Shown: positions 238 to 43,203 of the stretch, piece by piece
How the letters are laid out: each line of letters starts with the position of its first letter
Numbering within the stretch: the first letter of the stretch is position 1
Position numbers and translations under genes: made by a program
Source of the DNA: an uncultured Gemmatimonadota bacterium
Lineage (GTDB): Bacteria > JAAXHH01
Assembly (NCBI GenBank): GCA_951812955.1
Contig: OX638340.1
Span: 2,304,001-2,368,000, forward strand
DNA: 64,000 bases
Reading direction: 5' to 3'
Notes under the pieces: generated by a model
The model's input: the letters and a program-made list of their open reading frames with translations, nothing else
The model's database searches: none
What the model was told of the DNA's origin: nothing

Positions 238-2610
238 CTAATCTCGCCGCAGGGTGTCCGCCGGGTTGAGCATGGCGCTTCGGAAGGTATGCACGCTCAC
301 GGTGAGCAGGGCGGTGGCCAGGACAACCAGTCCCGCCGCGACGAAAGGCGCAGCACCGATCTCCGTCCGGTAGGCGAAGTCCGCCAGCCACTCGTTCATG
401 AGCCACCAGGCGGCCGGCCAGGCGAGGACGTTGCCGATCACCACGAGGACGACGAACTGCCTCGACAGCAGGCCGACTATATCTGAGACCGCGGCGCCCA
501 TCACCTTGCGGATGCCGACTTCCCGCGTGCGGCGCGCGATGTCCAGCGACACGAGTCCATATACACCCAGGCAGGCGATCAGCAGGGCGAATACCGCGGA
601 ATAGGTGAAAATGCGCGCAAGGTTGGCTTCACCCTCGTAGAATCGGGCGATGTCGTCATCAAGGAAGGAATACTCGAAAAGCGATTCCGGGGCGATCTCC
701 ATCCATGCCGCTCTCAACAGATCCAACGTGGCAGGCAGGTCCCGCCCGCTGACGCGTACCAGGAGGAAATTAACACCACCCTGGGTTTCCTCCCCGAAGG
801 AAGCGGGATTCATCGTCAGGATTACCGGCTCTATTTCTTGATGCATCGACTGGTAGTGGTAGTCCTCCAACACGCCGATGACCGTATATCCGTGGGGCAG
901 GGTCCGTCCGAGGGGGTCGTCCCATTCCATCACCCTGGCCGCGGCTTGGTTGATTATACATGACCCGGATTCGTCGTTGCCGAACTCCCGGGAAAAATCT
1001 CGTCCTGAGACCAGGTTCAGCTCTAGCGCCTTCACGTAATCGTAATCCACCGTGAACATATATGCTTCAAGCTTGTTCCCGTCCTTATCTGTATAGGCGG
1101 ACTGACCCAGGCCCCGACCGAAGGTGTTGGAAGCTCCCGTCACCAGGATTACGTTCTCATACGAGTTTATCCTGGATTTATAGACGTCCGCGGAGTTGGA
1201 ATTGGGCCCCATGTGGATGACGATGACGTTTTCCTTGTTGTATCCCAGATCTGTGTTCATGACGAAGTCCAACTGTCGGGTCATGACGAGTATGGAAACA
1301 ACGAGTAAGGCAGACAGGCCGAACTGGACGACCATCAGGCCGCGGATAACCAGGTTTGGGCTCCCGATCCGAACCTGATGTCTGAATACGGCAACGGGAT
1401 TGAAACGGGAGAGGATCAGGGCGGGATAGCTCCCGGACGCCAGGGCAACCAGGCCAGTCAACACTAGTAGCGCGGCGATCGTAGAGCCGTTGGAGAGATA
1501 ATCTAGGACGTATGAGCTTCCCGCCAGCGTGTTGAATACAGGAAGAAACAGGTGGGCCAGGATAACGCCTAAGATGAGGGCGAAGCAACTCAACACCGCG
1601 GTCTCACCCAGGAACTGTTTCATGATCTGGGTTTTCTGCGCACCGAACACCTTCCGCAGTCCAACCTCCCTGGCGCGCGAAGACGATCGGCAGAAGGCCA
1701 GGTTCATGAAATTCACGCAGGCGATGAAAAGAACGAAAAGCGCCGTGCAAATCAGTATGTAAGACCTGTTGGGATCGCTCGTGGTACCCTGGCCAAACCT
1801 CACACCCTGAGCAAGATACATGTCCGTTAAAGGCTGCAATTCCAGGTATGGCGATCCCATCTGTGAAAAATGAGTCTCGACAAAACCCGGCAACTGGTTT
1901 TCAAGCATGTCTGCCATTTCCGGATCCGACAGCTCGACGTAGGTTGAGGAGACACTGTAGTTCCAATTGCCGATCGCCTGATTCGTCCAGTTGTCGATAG
2001 CAAACATTTTGTCGAAGGGGATCAGGAAATCGAACCGTATGCTGGAATTAACCGGAGTGTTCTCTGCTACCCCGGCCACCAAAAACGGTTCACCTCGTAT
2101 CGTGAGTTGCCTGCCCAGGGGGCTTCCCGTCCCAAAATACTTCTCGGCGGCGGACTGGCTGATCACCACCGAGTTCAGTTCGTTCAGGACCGTCCCGGGA
2201 TCACCTTCGATCAATGGGAAGGAGAACACGCTGAATATCGATGGATCGCTATACAGAACGTGTTCTTCCCGGAACACATCATTACCAACACGGACTTCCG
2301 CCCCTCCGGTGGTTCGTATTCGCACGGTCTGTTCGACGCCGGGATACTGTTCCTTAAAGGCAGCGGCAAGTGGAAGAGGGGTAATCCCACTGGTATATAA
2401 GTTATCCTCGAAACCTGATCCACCGACGTTGACCCGGTAGATCCGGTCCGCCTTCTCGTGAAAGGCGTCGTAGGTCCACTCCTGGCGCACGAAGAGAAAT
2501 ACGAGGAGGCTGCAGGCGATGCCGGTGGACAGGCCCAGCGTGTTGATGAAGAAGTAGCCCTTGTTGCCGAACAGGTGCCGAAACGCGATGACAAGGTGGT
2601 TTTTCAGCAT
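238..2610 (-). CDS. ABC transporter permease, FtsX/MacB-like with duplicated FtsX domains (790 aa)
   Basis: N-terminus MLKNHLVIAFRHLFGNKGYFFINTLGLSTGIAC... is typical of MacB/FtsX permeases. A large periplasmic domain lies between TM helices. Two FtsX-type C-terminal TM bundles are present (...IARRTREVGIRKVMGA...). Confidence 0.85.
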   Translation of the reverse strand: MLKNHLVIAFRHLFGNKGYFFINTLGLSTGIACSLLVFLFVRQEWTYDAFHEKADRIYRVNVGGSGFEDNLYTSGITPLPLAAAFKEQYPGVEQTVRIRTTGGAEVRVGNDVFREEHVLYSDPSIFSVFSFPLIEGDPGTVLNELNSVVISQSAAEKYFGTGSPLGRQLTIRGEPFLVAGVAENTPVNSSIRFDFLIPFDKMFAIDNWTNQAIGNWNYSVSSTYVELSDPEMADMLENQLPGFVETHFSQMGSPYLELQPLTDMYLAQGVRFGQGTTSDPNRSYILICTALFVLFIACVNFMNLAFCRSSSRAREVGLRKVFGAQKTQIMKQFLGETAVLSCFALILGVILAHLFLPVFNTLAGSSYVLDYLSNGSTIAALLVLTGLVALASGSYPALILSRFNPVAVFRHQVRIGSPNLVIRGLMVVQFGLSALLVVSILVMTRQLDFVMNTDLGYNKENVIVIHMGPNSNSADVYKSRINSYENVILVTGASNTFGRGLGQSAYTDKDGNKLEAYMFTVDYDYVKALELNLVSGRDFSREFGNDESGSCIINQAAARVMEWDDPLGRTLPHGYTVIGVLEDYHYQSMHQEIEPVILTMNPASFGEETQGGVNFLLVRVSGRDLPATLDLLRAAWMEIAPESLFEYSFLDDDIARFYEGEANLARIFTYSAVFALLIACLGVYGLVSLDIARRTREVGIRKVMGAAVSDIVGLLSRQFVVLVVIGNVLAWPAAWWLMNEWLADFAYRTEIGAAPFVAAGLVVLATALLTVSVHTFRSAMLNPADTLRRD

Positions 2611-2779
2611 GATCGTTTTGCCTCCTGTCGCTTACGAGCTGTAAGCCGGAAAACGTTCCTGAGGAAACACGATCTTGGAATGGCAAAGGGGATCTACGGT
2701 TTCGACCCGTCGATCCCCTGAAAAGTTGCATGTTGGTAACTATTGCGATGCCGGAACTTACGTAGTGCATTCCCGACTG

Positions 2780-4381
2780 TCAGTCAACGACAAACGTGTT
2801 TTCACTACGGCGAAAACTCCTATCATCGCCAAACGAAACATCATAAACCAGTCTATACTCACCGGCGACTTCCGGATCGTATGGGCAAGCGTCGAATTCC
2901 ACCCGTGTGGCCTCGATGTCTTCCCATGTACTGCCCATATCGTCGCTTCGCTGCCATACGGAGTAATGGACCGTCATGGGGATACCTAACGGCTGAGTTG
3001 GGTAGTTGTTTAGTTCAGCACGAAAGAGTGAACTTGCACAGTATTCTATAGTTATAGGAGTATATCCTGGTCCCGTGAATATCAACTTACCGGGCTCGAC
3101 CTTCCAACCTTCCCACGGGACATAGACTATCTCGTCGACTGGCTCGTCGACGCCTTCGCCGCCATCCCCGCCATCCCCGCCTTCACCACCTTCCCCTTCA
3201 GTCGGAACCATGACCGTGATACTCACCATGGCCGACACGTCGCCGGACGCGGCCGTGACTACGGCCATGCCGTTGCCCACCGCTTCTACCAATCCATCCT
3301 CGTCCACGGTGATCACGTTTTCGTCACCGCTCGTCCACGTGACGGCCGGTTCGGCAATGGCATTGTCGTTCCCGTCGCTGACGGAAACCATGAGTTGCAG
3401 GGTCTGTTCGATCTCGGTCAGCGTGGTGGCATCGGGTGCGACCTCGATGCTGATGCCGGCCGGAACCTGGGCGACGGTGATCGACGCAGTCCCCATAGCG
3501 TCTCCGGCCTGTGCCGTGATCTCCGCCATGCCGTTGTCCACCGCGGTCACAAGCCCGTTCTCGTCCACGGTGGCCACGGCGTCATCGGCGCTTGACCAGG
3601 TCACCATCACGTCCTCCATCGCGTTTTCGTGCTGGTCCAGCACGACGGCCGCGAGTTCCACGGTGTCGCCGATCGCTTCCAGCGTGTGCGCAGCGGGCTC
3701 GATCGTCAGGCTCGTCGGCACGGATACGGATACCGTGATGGACGCACTGGCGGACAGGCTGCCGGATGTGGCCGTGATCTCAGCCATCCCGTTACTCACC
3801 GCCGTTACAAGGCCCGCCCCGCTCACGGTCGCCACGGCGTCGTCGCCGCTCGACCAGGTGATGGACTGGCCGGACATGATGTTGTTCCGCTGATCCCGCA
3901 CCGTAGCCGACAACTGTACCGTTTCCCCGATCGCCTTCAGCGTATGGGACGTCGGTGCGACCGTGATCCGGGTCGGCACCGGCTCGGCCACCGTGATGTT
4001 CGCAGTGCCCGTCGCGTTGCCGGACTGCGCCCTTATTTGCGCGGCGCCGTTGGCCACGGCCGTCACCAGGCCATTTCCGCTGACAGTCGCCACCGCGGTA
4101 TTGCTGCTCGACCAAGTCACCGCCTGGCCGGTCATCGGATTGTTGTTCTGGTCCCTCACCATGGCCATCAGTTGCACGGTCGCGCCAATCGTCGCCAGCG
4201 TGTGCGAAGACGGCGTGACAGAAATGCTCGTCGCAACGGGCGCAGGCGGTGGAGCAGGCGGGGTCGGTGTGGACGGCTCGGGACTCGTCGGGCTGCTGTC
4301 CCCGCCACCGCATCCCGCCAGAAAAACCAGGTACAAGGATGCCGTGATCTTGGCGAACACGCGACTGTATGGACCAAACAC
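2780..4381 (-). CDS. Surface lipoprotein with 4 bacterial Ig-like (Big-2) repeats and a distinct C-terminal domain (533 aa)
   Basis: Lipobox LVFLAGC is followed by a Pro/Thr-rich linker. There are four ~85-aa repeats of the type VTPSSHTLATIGATVQL...VTWSS...ATVSGNGLVTAV.NG.A.I.A. A Gly/Glu-rich linker follows, then a ~120-aa C-terminal domain. Confidence 0.8.
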   Translation of the reverse strand: MFGPYSRVFAKITASLYLVFLAGCGGGDSSPTSPEPSTPTPPAPPPAPVATSISVTPSSHTLATIGATVQLMAMVRDQNNNPMTGQAVTWSSSNTAVATVSGNGLVTAVANGAAQIRAQSGNATGTANITVAEPVPTRITVAPTSHTLKAIGETVQLSATVRDQRNNIMSGQSITWSSGDDAVATVSGAGLVTAVSNGMAEITATSGSLSASASITVSVSVPTSLTIEPAAHTLEAIGDTVELAAVVLDQHENAMEDVMVTWSSADDAVATVDENGLVTAVDNGMAEITAQAGDAMGTASITVAQVPAGISIEVAPDATTLTEIEQTLQLMVSVSDGNDNAIAEPAVTWTSGDENVITVDEDGLVEAVGNGMAVVTAASGDVSAMVSITVMVPTEGEGGEGGDGGDGGEGVDEPVDEIVYVPWEGWKVEPGKLIFTGPGYTPITIEYCASSLFRAELNNYPTQPLGIPMTVHYSVWQRSDDMGSTWEDIEATRVEFDACPYDPEVAGEYRLVYDVSFGDDRSFRRSENTFVVD

Positions 4382-7708: not shown

Positions 7709-9772
7709 TCAGGGGATGACAAACGTATTCTCACTACGGCGAAAACTCCTATCATCGTCAAGCGAAATATCACCAACCAGTCTATACTCACCGGCGACTT
7801 CCGGATTGTATGGGCAAGCGTCGAATTCCACCCGTGTGTCCTCGATGTCTTCCCATGTACTGCCCATATCGTCGCTTCGCTGCCATACGGAGTAATGGAC
7901 CGTAATGGTGACACCTAACGGAGTTGGGCGGTTGTTTAGTTCTCCACCTAAGAGTGAACTTGCGCAGTTTACTATAGGTATTGTAGCAAGTCCTGGGACC
8001 GTAAAAACCAACCGACCGGGCTCGACCCGCACACCTTCCCACGGGACGTAGGTGACTTCATCCACCGTAATGGTCACCGTGATGCTCACCATGGCCGACA
8101 CGTCGCCGGACGCGGCCGTAACTTCGGTCATGCCGTTGCCCACAGCTTCTACCAACCCATCCTCGTCCACGGTGACCACGTTCTCGTCACCGCTCGTCCA
8201 CGTGACGGCCGGTTCGGCAATGGCATTGTCGTTCCCGTCGCTGACGGAAACCATGAGTTGCAGGGTCTGTTCGATCTCGGTCAGCGTGGTGGCATCGGGT
8301 GCGACCTCGATGCTGATGCCGGCCGGAACCTGGGCGACGGTGATCGACGCAGTCCCCATAGCGCCTCCGGCCTGGGCCGTGATCTCCGCCATGCCGTTGT
8401 CCACCGCGGTGACCACGCCGTTCTCGTCCACGGTGGCCACGGCGTCGTCGCCGCTCGACCAGGTCACCATCACGTCCTCCATCGCGTTTTCGTGCTGGTC
8501 CAGTACGACGGCCGCGAGTTCCACGGTGTCGCCGATCGCTCCCAGCGTGTGCGCGGCTGGCTCGATCGTGATGCTCGTTGCCACGGGCTCGGATATCACC
8601 ATGACCGTGATACTCACCATGGCCGATACGTCGCCGGATGCGGCCGTAACTGCGGCCATGCCGTTCCCCACCGCTTCTACCAAACCATCCTCGTCCACGG
8701 TGGCCACGTTTTCGTCACCGCTCGTCCACGTGACGGCCGGTTCGGCAATGGCATTGTCGTTCCCGTCGCTGACGGAAACCATGAGTTGCAGGGTCTGTTC
8801 GATCTCGGTCAGCGTGGTGGCATCGGGTGCGACCTCGATGCTGATGCCGGCCGGAACCTGGGCGACGGTGATCGACGCAGTCCCCATAGCGTCTCCGGCC
8901 TGTGCCGTGATCTCCGCCATGCCGTTGTCCACCGCGGTCACAAGCCCGTTCTCGTCCACGGTGGCCACGGCGTCATCGGCGCTTGACCAGGTCACCATCA
9001 CGTCCTCCATCGCGTTTTCGTGCTGGTCCAGCACGACGGCCGCGAGTTCCACGGTGTCGCCGATCGCTTCCAGCGTGTGCGCAGCGGGCTCGATCGTCAG
9101 GCTCGTCGGCACGGATACGGATACCGTGATGGACGCACTGGCGGACAGGCTGCCGGATGTGGCCGTGATCTCAGCCATCCCGTTACTCACCGCCGTTACA
9201 AGGCCCGCCCCGCTCACGGTCGCCACGGCGTCGTCGCCGCTCGACCAGGTGATGGACTGGCCGGACATGATGTTGTTCCGCTGATCCCGCACCGTAGCCG
9301 ACAACTGTACCGTTTCCCCGATCGCCTTCAGCGTATGGGACGTCGGTGCGACCGTGATCCGGGTCGGCACCGGCTCGGCCACCGTGATGTTCGCAGTGCC
9401 CGTCGCGTTGCCGGACTGCGCCCTTATTTGCGCGGCGCCGTTGGCCACGGCCGTCACCAGGCCATTTCCGCTGACAGTCGCCACCGCGGTATTGCTGCTC
9501 GACCAAGTCACCGCCTGGCCGGTCATCGGATTGTTGTTCTGGTCCCTCACCATGGCCATCAGTTGCACGGTCGCGCCAATCGTCGCCAGCGTGTGCGAAG
9601 ACGGCGTGACAGAAATGCTCGTCGCAACGGGCGCAGGCGGTGGAGCAGGCGGGGTCGGTGTGGACGGCTCGGGACTCGTCGGGCTGCTGTCCCCGCCACC
9701 GCATCCCGCCAGAAAAACCAGGTACAAGGATGCCGTGATCTTGGCGAACACGCGACTGTATGGACCAAACAC
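7709..9772 (-). CDS. Surface lipoprotein with 6 Big-2 repeats (paralogue of 2780..4381; 687 aa)
   Basis: The N-terminal ~380 aa are identical to copy 1. There are two extra Big-2 repeats (an internal tandem duplication of repeats 3-4). The C-terminal domain is diverged from copy 1 and the Gly/Glu linker is absent. Confidence 0.8.
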   Translation of the reverse strand: MFGPYSRVFAKITASLYLVFLAGCGGGDSSPTSPEPSTPTPPAPPPAPVATSISVTPSSHTLATIGATVQLMAMVRDQNNNPMTGQAVTWSSSNTAVATVSGNGLVTAVANGAAQIRAQSGNATGTANITVAEPVPTRITVAPTSHTLKAIGETVQLSATVRDQRNNIMSGQSITWSSGDDAVATVSGAGLVTAVSNGMAEITATSGSLSASASITVSVSVPTSLTIEPAAHTLEAIGDTVELAAVVLDQHENAMEDVMVTWSSADDAVATVDENGLVTAVDNGMAEITAQAGDAMGTASITVAQVPAGISIEVAPDATTLTEIEQTLQLMVSVSDGNDNAIAEPAVTWTSGDENVATVDEDGLVEAVGNGMAAVTAASGDVSAMVSITVMVISEPVATSITIEPAAHTLGAIGDTVELAAVVLDQHENAMEDVMVTWSSGDDAVATVDENGVVTAVDNGMAEITAQAGGAMGTASITVAQVPAGISIEVAPDATTLTEIEQTLQLMVSVSDGNDNAIAEPAVTWTSGDENVVTVDEDGLVEAVGNGMTEVTAASGDVSAMVSITVTITVDEVTYVPWEGVRVEPGRLVFTVPGLATIPIVNCASSLLGGELNNRPTPLGVTITVHYSVWQRSDDMGSTWEDIEDTRVEFDACPYNPEVAGEYRLVGDISLDDDRSFRRSENTFVIP

Positions 9773-9854
9773 TGCTGTCTCCTTTCGGCTAATTACTGAA
9801 AAGCGGTTCGTTGTAATCTACCGTTCTTGATCTCGATGAACAGATTATCTGACT

Positions 9855-11144
9855 TCATGCACGCAGGCCCTTCATACTCTCCCGGGCCGCTTCGAGGGTC
9901 CGGTCGATGTCTTCTTCGGTATGGGCCAGGGACACAAACCCCGTTTCAAGGCGCGAAGGCGCCAGGTAGACGCCCCGGTCCAGCATATTCCAGAAGTATC
10001 GCCCGTACGTATCCGCGTCTGACGTGGAAGCTGCATCGAAATTGTTGACGGTCTGATCTGTGAAGAAGGTACACATCATGGAGCCCACACGGGTCAGGCA
10101 GGCCGGGACGCCGGCCGCTTCCGCCGCGGCGCGAAGGCCGTCGCCGAGGCGGGCGGCCAGGGATTCCAGCCGGTCGTAGACCCCGGGTTCCTGAAGCTGC
10201 CGCACCGTTTCATATCCAGCGGTCATGGCAAGCGGATTGCCGGACAGCGTGCCGGCCTGGTAAACCTCACCGGCGGGCGCCACGGTTTCCATGATTTCCC
10301 TGCGACCGCCATAGGCCCCCACGGGAAGTCCTCCCCCGATGATCTTGCCCAGGCAGGTCATGTCGGCCGAGATGCCGAATCGTTCCTGCGCTCCGCCGAA
10401 TGCGATCCTGAATCCCGTGATGACCTCGTCAAAAATCAGAATGATCCCCCGCTTCTCCGTCTCTTCCCGAATGGTTTCGAGAAAGCCTTCGGCCGGAGGG
10501 ATCATGCCCATGTTGCCGGCGACCGGCTCTACGATCACGCAGGCGACGTCGCCGCCCCGCTCCGCCAGGGTGCGCCGGACGGCCTCGACGTCGTTGTAGG
10601 GTAGATTGATGGTCATCTTCGCCAGGTCCGCAGGCACGCCGGGACTGTCGGGGATGCCGAATGTCGCGGCGCCGGAACCGGCCTGGATGAGAAAGCTGTC
10701 TCCGTGGCCGTGGTATCCCGCCTCGAATTTGACCGCCAGGTCGCGCCCCGTGTATCCGCGGGCGACGCGCAGGGCGCTCATGGTCGCTTCCGTGCCGGAG
10801 TTGACCATGCGTATCAGGTCGATGGACGGGAAGGCGGTCCTGACCAGTTCCGCCAGCCTGATCTCGGCTTCGGTGGGCGTGCCGAAACTCGTACCCCGTT
10901 CACAGGCCTTCTTCAGGGCCTCGACCACGGCGGGATGGCCGTGGCCCAGGATCAGCGGTCCCCAGGATCCCAGGTAATCGATGTACTCGTTGCCGTCCAC
11001 GTCGTAGACCCTGGAACCCGCGCCCCGGTCCATGAAGACGGGGCTTCCTCCAACCCGCCCGAAATTCCGCACGGGGCTGTTCACCCCGCCGGGCATGGAT
11101 CGCTGGGCCTGGTCGAAGAGGGTACTGGATCGGGAACGGTTCAT
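9855..11144 (-). CDS. hemL: Glutamate-1-semialdehyde 2,1-aminomutase
   Basis: Full-length class III PLP aminotransferase of 429 aa. Motifs are typical of HemL (e.g. YNDVEAV, GGLPVGAYGGRREIM). Confidence 0.95.
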   Translation of the reverse strand: MNRSRSSTLFDQAQRSMPGGVNSPVRNFGRVGGSPVFMDRGAGSRVYDVDGNEYIDYLGSWGPLILGHGHPAVVEALKKACERGTSFGTPTEAEIRLAELVRTAFPSIDLIRMVNSGTEATMSALRVARGYTGRDLAVKFEAGYHGHGDSFLIQAGSGAATFGIPDSPGVPADLAKMTINLPYNDVEAVRRTLAERGGDVACVIVEPVAGNMGMIPPAEGFLETIREETEKRGIILIFDEVITGFRIAFGGAQERFGISADMTCLGKIIGGGLPVGAYGGRREIMETVAPAGEVYQAGTLSGNPLAMTAGYETVRQLQEPGVYDRLESLAARLGDGLRAAAEAAGVPACLTRVGSMMCTFFTDQTVNNFDAASTSDADTYGRYFWNMLDRGVYLAPSRLETGFVSLAHTEEDIDRTLEAARESMKGLRA

Positions 11145-33261: not shown

Positions 33262-33760
33262 ATGGGACCCTTTCCTGCAACTTTCGATACATGATGTGGG
33301 CATCGACCAGGCCGTGATCGGGATGACTGAACGCGGCCGGTATGGTGCCGGCTATCGTAAACCCCAGGTCCTGCCAGAGCGCCACGGCCCGGAGGTTCGT
33401 GCTTACGACCATGTTGAACTGCATGGCCAGGAATCCCTCCCGGCGCGCTTCGTCGAGGGCGTGCGCTCCCATCGCCCGTCCCACGCCGCGGCCCTGGAAG
33501 CCCGGATCGACCATGAACCCCGCGTTCGCCACGTGGGCGCCCTGCCCGGGCTGGTTCGGCCGGAGAAAGTAGGTGCCCACCACCTCGCTCCCTTCCAGCG
33601 CGATGTAAGTCAGGTTCGGCGGCGCCATCCACAGCACGCGCGCTTCCTCTCTGCCCGTGTCGGGCGGATAGGGATAGGTGTCCGCCCGCCGGACGACCCG
33701 GTGGAAGATCTGCCAGATGGATTCGAAGTCGTCCTCGCCCGCTTGTCTGATCCGGATCAT
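33260..33760 (-). CDS. GNAT-family N-acetyltransferase
   Basis: Acetyl-CoA binding motif QGRGVGRAMG. Length 166 aa. Confidence 0.85.
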   Translation of the reverse strand: MIRIRQAGEDDFESIWQIFHRVVRRADTYPYPPDTGREEARVLWMAPPNLTYIALEGSEVVGTYFLRPNQPGQGAHVANAGFMVDPGFQGRGVGRAMGAHALDEARREGFLAMQFNMVVSTNLRAVALWQDLGFTIAGTIPAAFSHPDHGLVDAHIMYRKLQERVP

Positions 33761-34824
33761 CCCGCCCCTCTATCCAGTAGCATGGATTCGATCGTCTTCC
33801 TTTTCCGCGCCCGGGCGATGTCCAACGCCGTGGCGCCTTCCAGGTCCCTGATCGACGGATCCGCCCCCTGGTCGAACAGATACTGGACGAAGTCTCTACC
33901 TGCACCGCGGACGGCGGCCCAATGGAGCGCGGTGCGCCCGCGGTGATCGTCGGCGCCGTTCACACTGGCGCCGCGGTCGATCAGGAACCGGGCCATTTTG
34001 TACGAACCGTACTGCACCAGTTCGCTCAAGGTGTCGTCCACCGCGGGATGCCGGATGTCCGCTCCGGCCGCCAGCAGCATTTCCACGGAATCGTAATCCA
34101 CGCTCCACAGTGCGTTGATCAGGCCGGGATCGGGTTTCGCCCCGGCGTCCAGCAACGCCTGCATCATGGCCGGGTTTCCGATGGCGGAAGTCAACGCGGG
34201 AGGAGGCCGGTTTACTTCGGCACCCCGTACAAGGAGCAGCTTGACAATCGCCTCTAGGCGTGCCGCGGTTTCCTCATCATCCCGGCCCGCCTTGGAAGCC
34301 GTACCGTAGTTCAGGGGACGCCACCTGTTCTCGTCCACCGCGTTGACAAGGCCCGCGTCCCCGTCGAGCAGCGTCCTGACACGATCCGCCTCGCCAAGTG
34401 CCACGCTGGTGAAAATATCCCAATCCTCGATGTGCTTCCGGATCACCGGCAGAAACTGGATCTCCCCGCCCACGGCGGCGAGACAGGGCGCCGTCATGCG
34501 GCCGTGACCACCTCGCAGGTCGATACGGGCACCGTGTTCGAGGAGGACGCGGACGGTCTCGACGTGGTGCGGACCCTTGGGAATTGTCTTCTTGTGTTCC
34601 AGCACCCGGTGCAGGGGACGGTGCCGGTGGTTGTTCTTGCTCAGCACGTTGGGATCGGCGCCATGATCCAGCAGGATCCGCACGATCGCCTTGCTCCCCA
34701 CGAAGGCGGCGGTCATGATGGGCTGCCAGTGCGCGGCGGCATCGGGGTCTTCCTTCAACAGGGCTTTCACCGCGTCGAAGTCGCTGGACCAGGCGGCCTG
34801 GGTAAGTTGTTTCTCAACGGCCAT
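33757..34824 (-). CDS. Ankyrin-repeat protein
   Basis: Multiple 33-aa ankyrin repeats (...G.TALH.AA..G....V..LL..GAD...). Confidence 0.85.
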   Translation of the reverse strand: MAVEKQLTQAAWSSDFDAVKALLKEDPDAAAHWQPIMTAAFVGSKAIVRILLDHGADPNVLSKNNHRHRPLHRVLEHKKTIPKGPHHVETVRVLLEHGARIDLRGGHGRMTAPCLAAVGGEIQFLPVIRKHIEDWDIFTSVALGEADRVRTLLDGDAGLVNAVDENRWRPLNYGTASKAGRDDEETAARLEAIVKLLLVRGAEVNRPPPALTSAIGNPAMMQALLDAGAKPDPGLINALWSVDYDSVEMLLAAGADIRHPAVDDTLSELVQYGSYKMARFLIDRGASVNGADDHRGRTALHWAAVRGAGRDFVQYLFDQGADPSIRDLEGATALDIARARKRKTIESMLLDRGAG

Positions 34825-37636: not shown

Positions 37637-37644
37637 GATTGGAA

Positions 37645-37810
37645 TCAGTGGCGCCTGGCGGTTTTATATGCCTCTACCGGTTTGGGTTGTCTCGGCCTGG
37701 CACGGGGCTGCCTCCGCCCGTCCGGGGTTGTCTCGGCCGGTTCCAGCTGTTTCGGCCCGGCTCCGGTTGTCTCGGCCTGGCACGGGGCTGCCTCCGCCCG
37801 TCCGGGTCCT
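37645..37810. repeat. Intergenic GC-rich tandem repeat (~41-bp unit gttgtctcggcctggcacggggctgcctccgcccgtccggg x2 with a related unit in between)
   Basis: The direct repeat is visible between the GH32-like start and the NudC stop. Confidence 0.6.
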
Positions 37811-37816
37811 GTTTCG

Positions 37817-38782
37817 TCATTGTGCGGATACCTCGGAAACCCAGGAATCGACCAGAAACCGGGCGATGGAATCCCGTCGGGGCAAGGCGTACGCCACCGA
37901 TTCGTCGCCCCATTCGCCGAAGGCCCGTACTTCCTCCGCGGTGAACCAGCGGGCATCCACGAGTTCATCGGGGTTCACCGTGATCCCGGTGGTTTCGGCC
38001 CGCGCGCGGAAACCCAGCATCAGCGAAGACGGAAAAGGCCAGGGCTGCGACGCCTGGTAGTATGCTGAGCGCACGCGAACGCCGACCTCTTCGAACACTT
38101 CCCGGGCTACCGTTTCCTCCAGACTTTCACCCGGCTCCGAGTAGCCGGAAAGGGTGGAATACACGTTTGGCGGCGGACGGTGGTGGTTTCCCAAAAGGCA
38201 TCTGGGCGGGCCTCCGCCGTCCGGGCGGAACTCCACCAGCGTTATCACCGCGGGGTCAATACGGGGAAACAGGGTCCGCCCACAGCCCTTCCGCGTACAC
38301 CGGCGACGGTGACCTCCGTCCCGGCTTTCGGTGTGGTGTCCGCAGCGGCCGCAGTGCCGGTTCTGGCGGTGCCAGTATAGCATGCCCCGCGCGTACGCCA
38401 TCAGCGCCGCGCCGCGCGTCTCGATAGACGGACCGGCACGCCACAGGTCCTGGAACGTCCCCCGGCTTCCGGCCGCTGCCGTAGCGTCCCCTTCGTCGGC
38501 ATCGGACAGGTCCGCTGCGAAAACAGCCCGGCCGTCCTCCATGCCCAGGAACACGGTTTCGCAACTCGCTACCAGCACGTCCGCGGCGGCAGGTTGCGTG
38601 CAGATGACGGCGCATGGGCGGGCCGGCGCTTCCCCGTCGCCGATCAGGTTAAGATCGCGCCAGACGGGTATGACGCGGGTATCCTCCCGGCTCAGCTGAG
38701 CGGTCAGCCAGTTCGCATCGCTCCGCCGGTCCGCCGGCCGCGCCAGCGGGACGTCCGCGAATTTCAGTACGGGATTCGTCAT
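37817..38782 (-). CDS. nudC: NAD+ diphosphatase (NudC-type NUDIX hydrolase with zinc ribbon)
   Basis: Zn-ribbon C-x2-C...C-x2-C (CGRCGHHT...CTRKGC) lies before the NUDIX box GYSEPGESLEETVAREVFEEVGV. Confidence 0.8.
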   Translation of the reverse strand: MTNPVLKFADVPLARPADRRSDANWLTAQLSREDTRVIPVWRDLNLIGDGEAPARPCAVICTQPAAADVLVASCETVFLGMEDGRAVFAADLSDADEGDATAAAGSRGTFQDLWRAGPSIETRGAALMAYARGMLYWHRQNRHCGRCGHHTESRDGGHRRRCTRKGCGRTLFPRIDPAVITLVEFRPDGGGPPRCLLGNHHRPPPNVYSTLSGYSEPGESLEETVAREVFEEVGVRVRSAYYQASQPWPFPSSLMLGFRARAETTGITVNPDELVDARWFTAEEVRAFGEWGDESVAYALPRRDSIARFLVDSWVSEVSAQ

Positions 38783-38873
38783 AAGGCACTCGCACCGAGC
38801 CGGTTGCATTTATGGTATTTACTTCGTGCGGGCGGCCCCGGCTTCTGCCGCGGCGCAACCGCCCGGTATTATC

Positions 38874-40127
38874 CTACAACAGGGTTTCCAGCGTGTTGAC
38901 GAAGGCCTCGTTCTCATCCGGCGTGCCGACGGTCACGCGCAAATACCCCTTCAGCCCCCACCACATGGCGTCGCCGATCCAGACCTTCCGCTCCTGGAGC
39001 GCATTGAACACGCGCTCGGATTCATCCCCGAGCTGAAACAGGACGAAACAGGAATCGCTGGGCGTATACGGGATGCCCAGCCGATCGAAGGCCTTGCCCA
39101 GGTACGCCTTGCCTTCCTCCACCGTCCTGCGGCTCCGCTCGTAATGGGCGTCGTCGTCCAGCGCGGCGATGGCGGCATGCAGACCCAGGTTGCTCGGGGG
39201 ACCGCCCAGGTTGTAGAGCGACAGTTTTCTTCTCAACCGGGGCGAAAGCACCGCGTATCCCACGCGCAGTCCAGCGAGGCCGTACACCTTGGAGAACGTC
39301 CGGGATACGATGACGTTTTCTTGCTCGAGGGCCAGGTATATGGCGTCGCGGTAGTCCGGGTCGGTCGTGTAATCGATATACGCTTCGTCGATGAACACCG
39401 TAACGCGTTCGGGCACGGACCGCACGAAATCCGCCAGTACGTCATGGTCCACCACCGTGCTGGTCGGGTTGTTGGGATTCGTCACGACCACGACCGTCGT
39501 GTTGTCGTTGATCCGCTCGTACATGGCGTCCAGGTTGTGCCGAAGGTCCCGGGTCAGACGTACGTTATTGACCTTGATGTCGGCCCCTTCTTCTTCCTTG
39601 AACCGCCTCCAGACGTCCGCGGTGTCGAAGTAGGCGGGCTGGGCCTGGACCAGCTCCGCCTTGTCCCGGACCGTCGCCAGGCCCACTGCGTGAAGAATCA
39701 TGCTGGAACCCGCGCTGAGCGCCACCCGACGGTTTTTCGTGACCTCTTCCCAGTTGTCCCACGTCGTCTCGGTTACCGGCAAGCCGTGTTTTCGCTCGAG
39801 GGCGTTGATCAGGACTTCCGACGGGTCCGGCATGGAACTCCAGTGGTAACGGTTCACGCCGAACATGCGGGCTGCGACGGCTGCGACGGCCCTGGGGGAC
39901 GGTCCCAGGGGGTTTTCGTTGGACGACAGGTTCACGTAGCCCGGCTCGATGCCGAATCCCTGTATGTCTTCCGGTTTCTTGCCCGAAAGCAGCGCTTGCG
40001 CCATGACCATGGGATCGGCGGCTAAGGCCCCCAAGCCCCCCAGCAGCGATCCCGCAATGAATCCGCGCCGCGTCAGGTTGGATTCTGGTTTCATTATATC
40101 CCACTCCCTTAGTTCTGGCCTCTTCAA
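38874..40127 (-). CDS. Class I/II-fold PLP aminotransferase (histidinol-phosphate aminotransferase family) with twin-arginine (Tat) signal peptide
   Basis: Tat motif LTRRGFIAGS with an h-region and AQA cleavage site. The domain is HisC/CobD-like (..YVNLSSNENPLGPSP.. and a ..SRTFSKVYGLAGLRVGY.. lysine motif). Confidence 0.75.
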   Translation of the reverse strand: MKRPELREWDIMKPESNLTRRGFIAGSLLGGLGALAADPMVMAQALLSGKKPEDIQGFGIEPGYVNLSSNENPLGPSPRAVAAVAARMFGVNRYHWSSMPDPSEVLINALERKHGLPVTETTWDNWEEVTKNRRVALSAGSSMILHAVGLATVRDKAELVQAQPAYFDTADVWRRFKEEEGADIKVNNVRLTRDLRHNLDAMYERINDNTTVVVVTNPNNPTSTVVDHDVLADFVRSVPERVTVFIDEAYIDYTTDPDYRDAIYLALEQENVIVSRTFSKVYGLAGLRVGYAVLSPRLRRKLSLYNLGGPPSNLGLHAAIAALDDDAHYERSRRTVEEGKAYLGKAFDRLGIPYTPSDSCFVLFQLGDESERVFNALQERKVWIGDAMWWGLKGYLRVTVGTPDENEAFVNTLETLL

Positions 40128-40148
40128 CCAGGTGGTTTCTGTTGGGAT

Positions 40149-41549
40149 TTAAGCCCGTATCTTCTTAACCACTTCCCGGATGCTGTCCCGGAGCAGATCC
40201 AACATGAGGTCGGTCTCTTCCCGGCTGATAACGAGGGGCGGCGCCAGGGCGATCCAGCCAGGGTCGAAACGGGTCAGCAACCCCTTCTCCAGCGCGGTCT
40301 GCCCTACCTGCACGCCGAACTTCAGCGAAGGATCGAAAGGCACGCCAGTCTCGGAATCCTCGACGAATTCAATCCCGGCCAGCAGGCCGCAACCCCGGAT
40401 ATCGCCCACGATCCCCAGTTCCCGGAGGTCCTCCAGGCGCTCGCGGAGGTATGCCCCCTCCTCTCTCGCACGTGTACAGAGATCCCGTTCCTGGATCTCC
40501 GCCAGGTTCGCCAGGCCGGCCGCCGCGGCCAGCGGGTTTCCGCCGAAGGTATGGCCGTGAGAGAACTCGACCTCGTCTTCTTCCCGGCCGAGAAAGGCGG
40601 CGGCGATGGAATCCCGGAAGGCAATCCCGGCCAGGGGCACGTATCCGCTGGACATGCCCTTGCCCATGCACAGGATGTCGGGCGTCGCATCGAAGGTCTG
40701 GGCCGCGAACATGTTGCCCGTGCGGCCGAAACCGGTGATGATCTCATCGTAGATCAGGAGAATCTCGTGCCGGGTGCATATGTCCCTGAGCGTTGAGAGG
40801 TAGCCCGGCGGCGGCATGATGATGCCCCCGGTGTTCCCCACGGGTTCCAGGATGAGCGCCGCGATGGTCTCGGCTCCTTCCAGCTCGACCAGGTCCTCCA
40901 CCGTACGCGCGCAGAAGATCTCGCAATCCGGGAAAGTCTTTTCGTAGGGACATCGGAAACAGGTAGGGGGGTGGACGTGCAGGAAACCGTGCAGCGTGGG
41001 TTCGAACATGGTCTTGCGCCGGCGCGTGCCCGTGGCCGACAGGGCGCCCATCGTCGCGCCGTGGTACCCGTGAAAACGGGAGATCACCTTGAACTTGCCC
41101 GGGTTGCCGGTCTGCCGATGGTACTGCCGCGCCAGCTTCATGGCTGACTCGGTGGCCTCCGAACCGCCGGATAGCAACTTGATCGTGTTCAGGTCCTCCG
41201 GCGTGACTTCCGAGAGCCGCCGGACAAGCTCGATGGCCGGGGGGCTGGTGGCGTGGAGCGGAGGAGCGAAGGCCATGGTGTCCAGCTGCGCCTTGATCGC
41301 CTCGATGATCCGCCGGTTGCCGTGGCCGGCGTTTACGGTGAAGATGCCCGATATGCCGTCCAGGATCCGCCGCCCGTTTACATCCTCGTACCAGACCCCG
41401 TCCGCCTTCCGAATGACGAGGGGATCTTCGATGAAGGTCTCCATCTGGCGCAGGTCGAGGACCAGCCGCCGGAGGGATTCGGGCGCTGTGAGCAGTTGGG
41501 AATCCATGGCGCTTCTCTTGAAATCGGGCAGACCAGGGAACGCTTGCAA
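40149..41549 (-). CDS. Class III PLP aminotransferase (omega-aminotransferase family)
   Basis: 466 aa with ...GSEATESAMKLAR... and the ...DEIITGFGRTG... class III signature. Confidence 0.9.
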   Translation of the reverse strand: MQAFPGLPDFKRSAMDSQLLTAPESLRRLVLDLRQMETFIEDPLVIRKADGVWYEDVNGRRILDGISGIFTVNAGHGNRRIIEAIKAQLDTMAFAPPLHATSPPAIELVRRLSEVTPEDLNTIKLLSGGSEATESAMKLARQYHRQTGNPGKFKVISRFHGYHGATMGALSATGTRRRKTMFEPTLHGFLHVHPPTCFRCPYEKTFPDCEIFCARTVEDLVELEGAETIAALILEPVGNTGGIIMPPPGYLSTLRDICTRHEILLIYDEIITGFGRTGNMFAAQTFDATPDILCMGKGMSSGYVPLAGIAFRDSIAAAFLGREEDEVEFSHGHTFGGNPLAAAAGLANLAEIQERDLCTRAREEGAYLRERLEDLRELGIVGDIRGCGLLAGIEFVEDSETGVPFDPSLKFGVQVGQTALEKGLLTRFDPGWIALAPPLVISREETDLMLDLLRDSIREVVKKIRA

Positions 41550-41576
41550 AGGACGATCGGGGGAGACCGCCCGGCA

Positions 41577-41725
41577 TATGGCCGACGACTAGTACAGCCG
41601 GTCGATCACGACGTCCGCTCCGGAGTATGGCCGACGACTAGTACAGCCGGTCGATCACGACGTCCGCTCCGGAGTATGGCCGACGACTAGTACAGCCGGT
41701 CGATGACGACGTCCGCTCCGGATTC
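41577..41725. repeat. Three tandem 50-bp units, each encoding the last 11 codons plus stop (SGADVVIDRLY*) of the hypothetical secreted protein gene
   Basis: tatggccgacgactagtacagccggtcgatcacgacgtccgctccggag x2 nearly perfect. The third unit has c>g and is the true gene end. Confidence 0.85.
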
Positions 41726-42307
41726 TCCGATGACCACCCTAGGGATGACCCCTTCCATATCGCCGGCCTGCGGTACGCCGGCGTTTCCGTCCAAGTCGAT
41801 GCGCGCGACAATGGTGACTTCACCGGTGAAAGAAGGGCCCTGGACCGCCTGGTCCGCACCCGTCAGCGTGTACGGCATGGGAAACCGCAGGCTTCTGAAT
41901 CGCTTGACGGCAAGGGGCGGGCCGTTCTCGCCCCGTCTCGCCATGACGTACATGGTCTCCGAGCCTCTGAGCCGTGAGAAAAGTCCCGGCGTGATGTCGA
42001 TGGTTCCCGATACGCTTTCTCCGCTTACCGGGACTGCGGTGGGTTGTCCTTCCTCGAAGCTTCGGCCGGCTATCCGGCTGCCATCCATCGGCTGTTGCCG
42101 TTCCACGAAGGATCTGCCGGACGCCATTCCGCCGTCTTCGGGCAAGGGACGCAGGTTCTGATCGCATCCGCACCAGATCAGCAGGCCCAGCAATATCGAT
42201 TCAAGATGGAATTTGCGCATATTCAAATGGGATTCGACCGCCGGGAATACTCCGTTTTGCGGGTGTTTTTCGTCGTCCGAATACTCCGGATAGTCTAGGC
42301 GAACCAC
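41687..42307 (-). CDS. Hypothetical secreted protein
   Basis: N-terminal signal-like hydrophobic segment (LESILLGLLIWCGC). No recognisable domain. Confidence 0.45.
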   Translation of the reverse strand: MVRLDYPEYSDDEKHPQNGVFPAVESHLNMRKFHLESILLGLLIWCGCDQNLRPLPEDGGMASGRSFVERQQPMDGSRIAGRSFEEGQPTAVPVSGESVSGTIDITPGLFSRLRGSETMYVMARRGENGPPLAVKRFRSLRFPMPYTLTGADQAVQGPSFTGEVTIVARIDLDGNAGVPQAGDMEGVIPRVVIGESGADVVIDRLY

Positions 42308-42570
42308 CGGTTGTTGTCAACCTCTATGTACCTGTGCGCGGTAGAATAAAGTGCTTGACTAGACCCGTTGCGTAAATCTAACATGGAACTTCGTCGGCGG
42401 CTCCGTTCTCGGGGATCGGCCGGCACGATAGTTCAGGCAAGCGAAGCACGAGCGCACCACTCCTTTGCCGTGCCTGCCGCGGGTGGTATGGTCTCGCCAG
42501 ATTCCACCTTCTCTTTGCGATAAACCGGGTATTATACGCAACGGTTCCCCGGAACCAGGACGGAACAGTC

Positions 42571-43203
42571 ATGCCGCAGGGTACGATAACCAGGCTGAAC
42601 CACACCAGGGGATACGGATTCATCAACACGCCGGAGAACGAGGACCTGTTTTTTCATCGATCCAATATAATGGATGCGCAGTTTTCTCTATTGCAGGTCG
42701 GCGACCAGGTGACCTATACGGTTCAGTTCACTTCCCGCGGTCCACGGGCCGACCAGGTCCAGGTCGAGAGTCCGTCCGTGAAGCTCCAGGTCAACCTGGC
42801 CGTGAAGGACCTGCGTGTGTCCGCAGCATTCTACACCGAGACCTTCGATTTCAAGGAACTTTCTAACAATCCCGGCTATATCCTCCTTAAACGGAACGAT
42901 CTGATAATCGGATTGAAGACGGACGAACTGCTCTGGCATCCGGACCCTGGGGAACAGCCCGATGCGGCGCTCGTTCGGGGCGTGGGGGTCGAACTGGTCC
43001 TGGAAATCTCGGATATCGGCCAGTTTCACGCAAGGATGCAACAGGCCGGCGTGACCATACACGAACCGTTGAAAGAACAGCCGTGGGGCGCCACGGACTT
43101 CCGCATGCTGGATCCGGACGGGTACTACTGGCGGATCACGTCTCCCCGCGACCGCGATGTCGTCCACGCCGAAGAAGAACCGACGGAAGGTGAACCCGCG
43201 TGA
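42571..43203 (+). CDS. Cold-shock domain (CSD) fused to a glyoxalase/VOC-fold domain
   Basis: N-terminus [28 protein letters not shown] is a CspA-like RNP motif. The C-terminal ~130 aa have the VOC pattern (..[21 protein letters not shown].. then ..[10 protein letters not shown]). Confidence 0.7.

Follow-up and report, generated by a model that had tools for sequence, protein, structure and literature searches.

The aminotransferase considered here, termed AT1, is related to the histidinol-phosphate aminotransferase HisC. Periplasmic transamination by a PLP enzyme has been demonstrated for essentially one HisC-like protein, PtaA (PA2531) of Pseudomonas. It has been experimentally shown that this transaminase is exported by the Tat pathway, folded and loaded with PLP, and is active in the periplasm, where its target is the glutamate residue of pyoverdine; PA2531 has been validated as a substrate of the Tat pathway, and homologues of PtaA are also found in non-pyoverdine producers (PMC6206403, PMC6085387). 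A literature search for periplasmic or Tat-exported aminotransferases other than PvdN and PtaA gave nothing specific. In NCBIfam, two curated models cover Tat-type members: (i) PRK09105 (NF006580); and (ii) PtaA (NF051461). The PRK09105 group and the structural-genomics entries 3ly1 (Pectobacterium) and 3p1t (Burkholderia BPSL1724), at about 27% identity to AT1, have no assigned substrate.

AT1 is encoded in a 64-kb stretch of Latescibacterota DNA, hereafter called the window. The features that define the gene are the following:

38874..40094, minus strand: AT1, a HisC-like class I/II aminotransferase of PLP fold-type I with a Tat signal (406 aa; PF00155; the stop codon is included in the interval)
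40104..40110, minus strand: Shine-Dalgarno sequence of AT1, AAGGGAG, 9 nt upstream of the ATG at 40094
39993..40094, minus strand: predicted Tat signal peptide, codons 1-34, MKPESNLTRRGFIAGSLLGGLGALAADPMVMAQA, with the RR codons at 40065..40070 and predicted cleavage after A-Q-A
39288..39290, minus strand: codon of K269, the PLP Schiff-base lysine (K214 of E. coli HisC), in an invariant alignment column

An earlier reading of this DNA, made from the letters alone (the sequence-only reading), had placed the gene at 38874..40127. The open reading frame is indeed present on the minus strand and matches Pfam Aminotran_1_2 (PF00155) at 1.4e-40 (140 bits vs. a cut-off of 19.7), but its start must be moved from the TTG at 40127 to the ATG at 40094. 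Of the 17 close relatives examined, 16 have an AGGAG-type Shine-Dalgarno sequence 8-10 nt 5' of this ATG (none can be recognised in L080, which is more distant), the sequence further 5' has diverged among close relatives, and several of them have an in-frame stop codon 6-15 codons 5' of the ATG. Since the conserved Shine-Dalgarno sequence and the ATG both precede the RR motif, the true start is not downstream of it and the motif lies within the protein.

The same reading had recognised a twin-arginine signal in AT1, and this part of it stands. Residues 8-14 (T-R-R-G-F-I-A) fit the Tat consensus S/T-R-R-x-F-L-K, within the motif T8-R9-R10-G-F-I-A-G, and they are followed by a Gly-rich h-region, GSLLGGLGALAA, and by DPMVM-A-Q-A, in which A-Q-A corresponds to residues 32-34; these segments are conserved in the clade, and relatives of AT1 carry S-R-R-G-F-I as their version of the RR motif. 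The combination of [S/T]RR.F, h-region and AxA was found in every full-length close homologue and also in a clade at about 40% identity, while 56 of 57 distant loci (31-39% identity) encode an RR or RK motif and a hydrophobic stretch ahead of the catalytic domain. Homologues, then, are far from lacking the motif. Across the window and 16 close relatives, pN/pS is 0.23 for signal codons 1-34 vs. 0.24 for codons 35-406; the signal codons are under purifying selection like the mature enzyme, and the RR match is not due to chance. The AlphaFold2 model is of low confidence (pLDDT) up to about residue 35. In the sequence alignment, the HisC motif PY.PGKPIEEV has its counterpart in LLSGKKPEDIQ, at the start of the mature protein. 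P0065, a relative, carries a Sec-type signal in place of the Tat-type one, so location, rather than pathway, appears to be conserved. A strict regular-expression scan of the window returned AT1 as the sole Tat-type N-terminus, and tat genes were seen neither within the 64-kb window nor within the 21-kb loci of the relatives. In consequence of the conserved twin-arginine signal, AT1 almost certainly works outside the cytoplasm, the Tat pathway being its predicted route.

AT1 could instead be an ordinary cytoplasmic HisC with an RR motif that is fortuitous or precedes the true start. The in-frame Met codons M29 and M31 within the signal would offer such a start, and hisC is the top-scoring NCBIfam model. 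This possibility is, however, extremely improbable: it is contradicted by the selection on the signal codons, by the Shine-Dalgarno sequence ahead of M1, by the persistence of the RR motif down to 31% identity and, as detailed below, by a score under the hisC cut-off and by the replacement of substrate-binding residues.

As regards the enzyme itself, the PLP lysine, whose conservation was to be verified by alignment, is present: K269 sits in SRTFSKVYGLAG, in an invariant column. Together with N209, D236, Y239, S268 and R277, it corresponds to K214, N157, D184, Y187, S213 and R222 of E. coli HisC, positions that are invariant or nearly so, and the equivalents of Y55, N157, D184, Y187, S213, K214, R222 and R335 occur in 47 of 47 clade members. 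The AlphaFold2 model (pLDDT 88.9, pTM 0.86) has its best PDB fold matches in 3ffh, 3ly1, 4r2n, 3get and 3p1t. Among them, 3ly1 aligns with a TM-score of 0.89 (normalised to the target) and an rmsd of 2.3-2.6; it also shares with AT1 the Gly at the R322 position of HisC and the segments ..F.QL.. and ..IG.A.., and its fragment likewise falls under the PRK09105 (NF006580) cut-off.

AT1 thus has in common with HisC the fold and the PLP-binding and catalytic residues, and TIGR01141 (hisC) is its highest-scoring curated model. Nevertheless, it has a Tat signal where HisC has an N-terminal arm, and its 207.3 bits are below the cut-off of 276.55. The residues Y20, D85, R322 and R335 of E. coli HisC are those which we take, from the published structures, to bind the phosphate and imidazole groups of the substrate. 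In the AT1 clade, Y20 is replaced by L, D85 by S and R322 by G or A, with only R335 kept, whereas canonical HisC matches have Y at the first position (52/53), D or N at the second (50/53) and R at the third (52/53). No his genes were found near AT1, nor any his-operon context. On these grounds (sub-cut-off score, replaced residues and gene context), AT1 is almost certainly not a histidinol-phosphate aminotransferase.

The altered substrate pocket, with G at the R322 position and an AMWW segment, might also suit an exported enzyme with other PLP chemistry, such as the decarboxylation known from CobD or the beta/gamma-elimination or cyclisation of GntC or VioD. AT1 does match the models of these three enzymes, at 147, 81 and 67 bits, respectively, and CobD structures are among the fold matches (TM 0.72). 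But these are the lower-scoring matches, the best ones in sequence and in structure are all transaminases, and AT1 has the very same set of catalytic residues as the HisC-type transaminases. Such a departure from transamination is, in our judgement, improbable.

Regarding the curated Tat-type models, the PRK09105 profile aligns from residue 16 of AT1, thus taking in the signal region, but the score is 191 bits vs. a cut-off of 444. With PtaA, AT1 shares the HisC-like class I/II PLP transaminase domain and the N-terminal twin-arginine signal, and it matches NF051461 over nearly its full length (1.1e-45). AT1 might then, as PtaA does, modify one exported secondary metabolite (e.g., the amino-acid moiety of a siderophore) instead of free amino acids. 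PtaA is the only characterised Tat-exported HisC-like transaminase, it does precisely that, and its homologues reach beyond pyoverdine producers; sponge symbionts, moreover, are rich in natural products. On the other hand, the PtaA score of 156 bits is far under the equivalog cut-off of 500 and also under the hisC score of 207, the host phylum is Latescibacterota instead of that of Pseudomonas, pyoverdine and siderophore genes are missing from the AT1 neighbourhood, and the 12-gene syntenic block contains no gene for an NRPS, a PKS, a siderophore or an exporter. The comparison with PtaA is one of HMM scores, as the tree described below included no true PtaA sequences. Tailoring of this kind has, in our view, a small chance of being the role of AT1. 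Given the replaced residues and the scores below the hisC, PtaA and PRK09105 cut-offs, AT1 is an uncharacterised new member of a known group, the Tat-exported HisC-like periplasmic transaminases for which PtaA is the precedent, and not a new system.

This group is not small. Tat-signal HisC-like proteins occur in Latescibacterota, in a Woeseiaceae MAG and metagenome contigs with a similar protein, and in the genomes of more than 50 Bacteroidota species. The idea that export of a PLP enzyme is a rarity was therefore overstated, in view of this large family and of the PtaA precedent. A neighbour-joining tree of 174 sequences, built without bootstrap, separates, among the sequences listed, (i) a mostly Bacteroidota Tat clade; (ii) canonical HisC; and (iii) the AT1 clade plus the clades at about 40% identity. 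In this same tree, again without bootstrap, 3ly1 falls near the base of the mostly Bacteroidota clade.

The gene neighbours of the distant relatives hint at periplasmic amino-acid or keto-acid metabolism, by analogy with relatives at 31-43% identity to AT1. Three arrangements can be distinguished: (i) in 44 of the 57 distant Tat-type loci, nearly all from Bacteroidota, a gene for a Tat-signal flavoprotein (346 bits vs. the L-amino-acid oxidase 2jae of Rhodococcus opacus) lies directly upstream of the aminotransferase; (ii) in a gammaproteobacterial-type contig, M24 and M28 peptidase genes are directly upstream, the M28 gene abutting the aminotransferase start; and (iii) in another clade, a Tat-signal Gluconate_2-dh3 subunit and a GMC oxidoreductase are encoded upstream. 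The Bacteroidota operon (Tat-signal L-amino-acid oxidase, Tat-signal aminotransferase and secreted Hint-domain protein), for which no characterisation was found, encodes an aminotransferase 31-36% identical to AT1, but its oxidase and Hint-domain genes are missing from the AT1 locus; L-amino-acid oxidase, Hint-domain and class V aminotransferase genes were sought in the window, with zero matches. The AT1 neighbourhood likewise contains no oxidase, peptidase or transporter gene that would name the substrate. Furthermore, most of the Bacteroidota-operon aminotransferases keep R322, which AT1 does not, and hence its specificity may differ.

Because the Tat signal is conserved, with the start upstream of the RR motif and the motif present in the homologues, extracytoplasmic PLP transamination is the best reading of the sequence. 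The substrates put forward in the sequence-only reading (D-amino acids, cell-wall or siderophore precursors, amino sugars) would be mere candidates. AT1 is thus probably (we put it at about 0.75) a Tat-exported, HisC-like PLP transaminase of the periplasm, distinct from HisC and likely to serve in the scavenging of amino acids and 2-oxo acids. According to this model, AT1 would acquire its fold and its PLP while still in the cytoplasm, in all likelihood as an obligate homodimer, as is usual for this fold; it would then be exported by the Tat pathway and cut by signal peptidase after A-Q-A (residue 34); and it would carry out ping-pong transamination in the periplasm. Its most likely role would be the extracytoplasmic interconversion of an amino acid (or an amino-acid-like moiety) and a 2-oxo acid, through which a sponge-/coral-associated Latescibacterota bacterium may scavenge nitrogen or carbon. 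A literature search on Latescibacteria in sponges gave nothing specific.

The genes around AT1 could, in principle, say more about this role. The relevant features are:

40149..41507, minus strand: AT2, a cytoplasmic class III omega-transaminase-like protein (452 aa from the ATG at 41507; the open reading frame runs to the TTG at 41549)
41687..42220, minus strand: small lineage-specific putative lipoprotein with a C-terminal Ig_CycH-like domain (177 aa; PF23892)
41577..41722, no strand assigned: 49-bp tandem repeat in three copies, in the region between the lipoprotein gene and AT2 (TRF: period 49, 3.0 copies, 98% matches)
37817..38809, minus strand: NudC-like NADH pyrophosphatase (PF00293 and PF09296), 64 nt downstream of AT1
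42292..42320, minus strand: sigma-70-like promoter match TTGACA-17-TAGACT, upstream of the lipoprotein ATG (10/12; a consensus match only)

AT2 is a class III aminotransferase devoid of a signal peptide, as the sequence-only reading had it. It matches PF00202 over its full length (4e-103, 345.6 bits, residues 44-455), its ATG is conserved in relatives and its N-terminus is not hydrophobic; it scores below every NCBIfam cut-off, and its nearest PDB entries are amine and omega-amino-acid:pyruvate transaminases. At one relative's locus (L050), a single weak class III match lies some 6 kb away, on the opposite strand. AT2 had been described as following AT1. The two are neighbours but, all three genes being on the minus strand, transcription runs from the lipoprotein gene to AT2 and then to AT1.

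The third gene, previously taken as a secreted hypothetical, appears to encode a lipoprotein, judging by its signal: ..LIW[C/S/F]G-C-DQNLRPLPEDGG, with a Cys that is invariant across 20 relatives and a W at position -3, which is atypical for a lipobox (L080 has ..V-Y-A-C at the same site). The protein matches PF23892 (Ig_CycH) at 4e-11 (43.1 bits vs. a gathering threshold of 27; residues 101-203) and has no match among PDB sequences. The 28 homologues found belong nearly all to the same lineage. The lone homologue outside it (P0148) is found in an unrelated type-III/flagellar export context.

The triplication noticed at the 3' end of this gene is borne out by the 49-bp repeat. Each unit is made up of the final 36 nt of the lipoprotein gene (stop codon included) and the 13 nt that follow, and the relatives differ in copy number (0 to at least 4). 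The possibility of a riboswitch or attenuator was rejected: the repeat region gave no RNA structure signal (z = -0.05) and no match in Rfam.

AT1 is probably co-transcribed with the upstream lipoprotein and AT2 genes; functional coupling of the three is conjectural. In six relatives, 5-14 nt separate the lipoprotein gene from AT2, and in three (L006, L012 and L013) 5 nt separate AT2 from AT1, a tight spacing consistent with co-transcription; no minus-strand terminator-like site was found from 37500 to 42700. NudC, which begins 2-4 nt past the AT1 stop in L014 and L020, probably belongs to the same transcription unit and is functionally unrelated.

The lipoprotein, cytoplasmic AT2 and periplasmic AT1 had been proposed to form a single amine or amino-acid scavenging module spanning two compartments. 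The common strand, the single promoter-like site ahead of the lipoprotein gene and the tight spacing in close relatives speak for it, as does a gene order (lipoprotein, AT2, AT1, NudC) that can still be recognised at 66% identity (L080). But the unrelated NudC is appended just as tightly and, since all 12 neighbouring genes are syntenic in close relatives, adjacency there is uninformative. Intact linkage is confined to relatives with at least 79% AT1 identity, in which synteny extends over the entire region; in L080, the members of the trio are separated by six other genes, including one of opposite orientation, and at 56% identity (L082) both AT2 and the lipoprotein gene are missing. In addition, a class III transaminase adjoins the AT1 relative in none of the 57 distant loci, and the lipoprotein family is confined to its own lineage. 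A dedicated module is consequently doubtful.

In any case, HisC-like enzymes with a Tat signal are common in several phyla and, as a rule, score under every curated family cut-off; in consequence, annotation pipelines label them "histidinol-phosphate transaminase", a label that is almost certainly wrong for AT1. The value of the AT1 locus resides mainly in this corrected annotation and in providing a candidate for biochemical screening, while the Bacteroidota loci, with their conserved pairing of aminotransferase and Tat-exported L-amino-acid oxidase, lend themselves well to learning what these enzymes do. In a broader and rather speculative perspective, which we hold to be unlikely, Tat-exported HisC-like transaminases might be the core of a widespread, unrecognised form of periplasmic amino-acid processing with lineage-specific partners. 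If so, the transaminase would exchange amino groups among amino acids and 2-oxo acids in the extracytoplasmic space, in partnership with (i) an L-amino-acid oxidase in Bacteroidota; (ii) peptidases in the gammaproteobacterial-type contigs; (iii) a GMC dehydrogenase in another clade; and (iv) in sponge-symbiont Latescibacterota, a dedicated lipoprotein and a cytoplasmic omega-transaminase, which would harvest amines and amino acids derived from the host.

The genes considered here form a trio that lies entirely on the minus strand, in the following order of transcription:

42220..41687, minus strand: lipoprotein-like gene, 177 aa (first)
41507..40149, minus strand: AT2, class III aminotransferase (second)
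40094..38874, minus strand: AT1, HisC-like aminotransferase (third)

AT1 matches Pfam Aminotran_1_2. Its AlphaFold2 model is confident (pLDDT 88.9, pTM 0.86), with low confidence only at residues 1 to about 35, and in Foldseek it groups with the HisC-family structures 3ffh, 3ly1, 4r2n, 3get and 3p1t. Residues were compared in an alignment of 174 sequences, including an E. coli HisC sequence (12/12 named residues fell at the expected positions). Y55, N157, D184, Y187, S213, K214, R222 and R335 (E. coli HisC numbering) are kept in 47/47 AT1-clade sequences; the PLP lysine that the sequence-only reading proposed to look for is among them (K214, K269 in AT1). Three other positions are substituted in the AT1 clade, namely (i) Y20, which becomes L; (ii) D85, which becomes S; and (iii) R322, which becomes G or A. 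All three are kept in 50-52 of the 53 canonical signal-less HisC matches in the alignment. In the published E. coli HisC structures, the substrate phosphate is bound by Y20 and R322 and the imidazole by D85. AT1 also falls short of all curated NCBIfam cut-offs (hisC, TIGR01141: 207 vs 276; PRK09105, NF006580: 191 vs 444; PtaA, NF051461: 156 vs 500), as do representative proteins from each of the other Tat-type clades and the 3ly1 fragment. Taken together, the kept catalytic residues, the replaced substrate residues and the sub-cut-off scores argue that AT1 is a PLP transaminase-type enzyme with intact catalytic residues and not a histidinol-phosphate aminotransferase.

The kind of system to which AT1 belongs is already known from PtaA and from existing NCBIfam models. 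In fluorescent pseudomonads, PtaA is a HisC-like PLP transaminase that the Tat system exports folded and with its cofactor, and that in the periplasm turns pyoverdine's glutamate residue into 2-oxoglutarate; homologues also occur in species that do not make pyoverdine, and a broader role in the periplasm has been suggested (PMC6206403). PA2531, the orthologue in P. aeruginosa, is a validated Tat substrate (PMC6085387). There are NCBIfam models for both PtaA and PRK09105, the latter with a profile that takes in the signal region. AT1 is a further, uncharacterised enzyme of this kind; it comes from a new phylum and its pocket is altered.

Regarding the start codon, the listed AT1 ORF opens at TTG 40127, while the ATG at 40094 has AAGGGAG upstream at 9-nt spacing. 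An AGGAG-type site precedes the same ATG (GTG in one locus) in 16/17 related loci, with unconserved sequence further upstream; the exception, the more distant L080, has no evident site of this type. An in-frame stop is also found 6-15 codons ahead of the start in several loci. The resulting N-terminus, MKPESNLTRRGFIAGSLLGGLGALAADPMVMAQA, contains a near-consensus twin-arginine motif, a glycine-rich h-region and a predicted A-Q-A cleavage site. In the window and 16 close relatives, pN/pS is 0.23 for codons 1-34 and 0.24 for the remainder of the gene; these values are indistinguishable and, therefore, the signal is translated and constrained. At the mature N-terminus, LLSGKKPEDIQ lines up with the PY.PGKPIEEV motif of HisC, and thus the signal stands in for the short HisC N-terminal arm.

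The combination of [S/T]RR.F, a hydrophobic stretch and AxA is found in every full-length AT1 homologue, from 100% to 36% identity, except P0065 (39% identity), in which a Sec-type signal without RR replaces the Tat signal; this exception suggests that the conserved trait is extracytoplasmic location rather than export route. Among 57 distant loci (31-39% identity to AT1; one Woeseiaceae MAG, the others nearly all Bacteroidota), 56 have an RR/RK motif and a hydrophobic stretch ahead of the catalytic domain, and the remaining one looks frame-shifted. The exported-type signal is, in consequence, real, translated and conserved, and the two objections anticipated by the sequence-only reading do not hold: ATG 40094 and its conserved ribosome-binding site place the arginine pair inside the protein, and homologues do carry the motif. 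Separately, in L018 (about 10001..10155) the AT1 orthologue loses frame before residue 52, with the signal region out of frame; the gene call for that MAG's protein (P0044) spans just 330 aa, and the likely explanation is an assembly frameshift or a pseudogene.

The sequence-only reading placed the class III enzyme after AT1 and proposed that the trio may form a two-compartment scavenging module. The neighbour is there, but AT2, a generic amine/omega-amino-acid:pyruvate transaminase-like enzyme, precedes AT1 in the direction of transcription. Trio adjacency is uninformative among close relatives because a whole 12-gene block is collinear in 20 of them (AT1 identity 79-98%). The lipoprotein and AT2 genes are separated by 5-14 nt in six genomes, and AT2 and AT1 by 5 nt in three. 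A promoter-like site precedes the lipoprotein gene, and no terminator-like site was found on the minus strand between 37500 and 42700; this arrangement is consistent with co-transcription. NudC begins 2-4 nt past AT1 in two genomes, equally close, so a shared transcription unit does not mean shared function. L080/L081, at 66% identity, still show lipoprotein, AT2 (74%), AT1 and NudC (61%) in that order, but interrupted by a class V aminotransferase, a hypothetical, two MoCF_biosynth genes, an opposite-strand PhyH and a histidine-kinase/response-regulator; at 56% (L082), the partners are absent and the AT1 homologue is flanked by a sulfatase and a UDPGP-family gene. Only 28 members of the lipoprotein family were detectable, and apart from one distant match in an unrelated context they belong to this lineage. 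A dedicated module is possible, and these data lend it weak support. In L080/L081, a class V aminotransferase and a lipoprotein-like hypothetical (MTLFRLFLLSFLCCMYSGC...) lie at 1147..3012 between the Ig_CycH lipoprotein and class III genes, and three different aminotransferase classes occur inside 9 kb.

The triplicated 3' end ascribed to the lipoprotein gene is present as a 49-bp unit repeated three times (41577..41722, 98% matches) in the lipoprotein-AT2 spacer. Each unit comprises the last 36 nt of the gene, stop codon included, and 13 nt downstream; copy 1 supplies the normal end of the gene, and copies 2 and 3 are non-coding. Copy number in relatives is 0, 2, 3, 4-5 or at least 4, with varying decay (L001, L014, L019 and L020 among the loci), and genomes without the repeat have a spacer of only 5-14 nt. 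This variation and decay argue for a genuine, fast-evolving tandem repeat; in L020, the array coincides with an assembly gap. Predicted folding of the repeat region does not exceed that of shuffled sequence (z = -0.05), and an Rfam search gave no matching family.

Downstream of the trio, the same strand carries a NudC-like Nudix gene, a GH32 glycosidase, a zinc dehydrogenase and an ankyrin-repeat gene. The window has a G+C content of 62%, and its nearest relatives are chromosomes of ~3.7-3.9 Mb and MAGs that carry the label Candidatus Latescibacterota or, in some cases, Gemmatimonadetes or Zixibacteria. Isolate names of several relatives suggest sponge or coral metagenome bins. Ankyrin-repeat proteins are frequently reported from sponge symbionts, and the one encoded in this co-oriented run (355 aa, 33757..34824, minus strand) fits the host-associated origin hinted at by those names. 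Divergent from the lipoprotein gene, a cold-shock DNA-binding domain fused to a glyoxalase/VOC domain (42571..43203, plus strand) is kept in all close relatives. Elsewhere in the window, two long minus-strand ORFs (2780..4381 and 7709..9772) share an identical 50-residue lipoprotein-like N-terminus (MFGPYSRVFAKITASLYLVFLAGCGGGDSSPTSPEPSTPTPPAPPPAPVA) and may be recent paralogues or a repeat.

Functional hints come from the distant Tat-type relatives, in three contexts: (i) a Tat-signal flavoprotein lies immediately upstream of the aminotransferase in 44/57 distant loci (PF01593; 346 bits, E = 2.6e-102 against the Rhodococcus opacus L-amino-acid oxidase 2jae), and in 42/57 the next gene downstream encodes a secreted Hint-domain protein; (ii) in L084 (3619..8251, gammaproteobacterial-type contig), M24 and M28 (DUF4910) peptidase genes are directly upstream, the end of the M28 gene meeting the aminotransferase start (7001); and (iii) in L083 (5588..9281) and L086 (4586..8272), whose clade is ~42% identical to AT1, a Tat-signal Gluconate_2-dh3 subunit and a signal-less GMC flavoprotein are directly upstream and could form with it a periplasmic dehydrogenase-transaminase pair. 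Tat signals are documented on R. opacus-type oxidases (PMC5053998). The oxidase-aminotransferase-Hint arrangement, of which no description was found in the literature searched, occurs in about 44 loci within L024-L079, nearly all Bacteroidota, with this example:

L074, 8243..9781, 9812..10984 and the gene downstream: oxidase, aminotransferase, Hint-domain protein

L084 also has Asp/Glu racemase and PALP genes a few kb downstream. The three contexts would each pair an exported transaminase with periplasmic enzymes making amino acids or carbonyl/2-oxo compounds, which fits extracytoplasmic amino-acid/keto-acid exchange; such partners would also furnish the amino acceptor for PLP regeneration. 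AT1's own locus has no such partners, and R322, lost in AT1, is kept in most of those distant relatives.

Overall, the original observation is confirmed and its interpretation partly supported. In practice, the chief result concerns annotation: the label "histidinol-phosphate transaminase" is wrong for AT1 and many related Tat-signal proteins. The Bacteroidota oxidase-transaminase operon is a better entry point to the function of Tat-signal aminotransferases.
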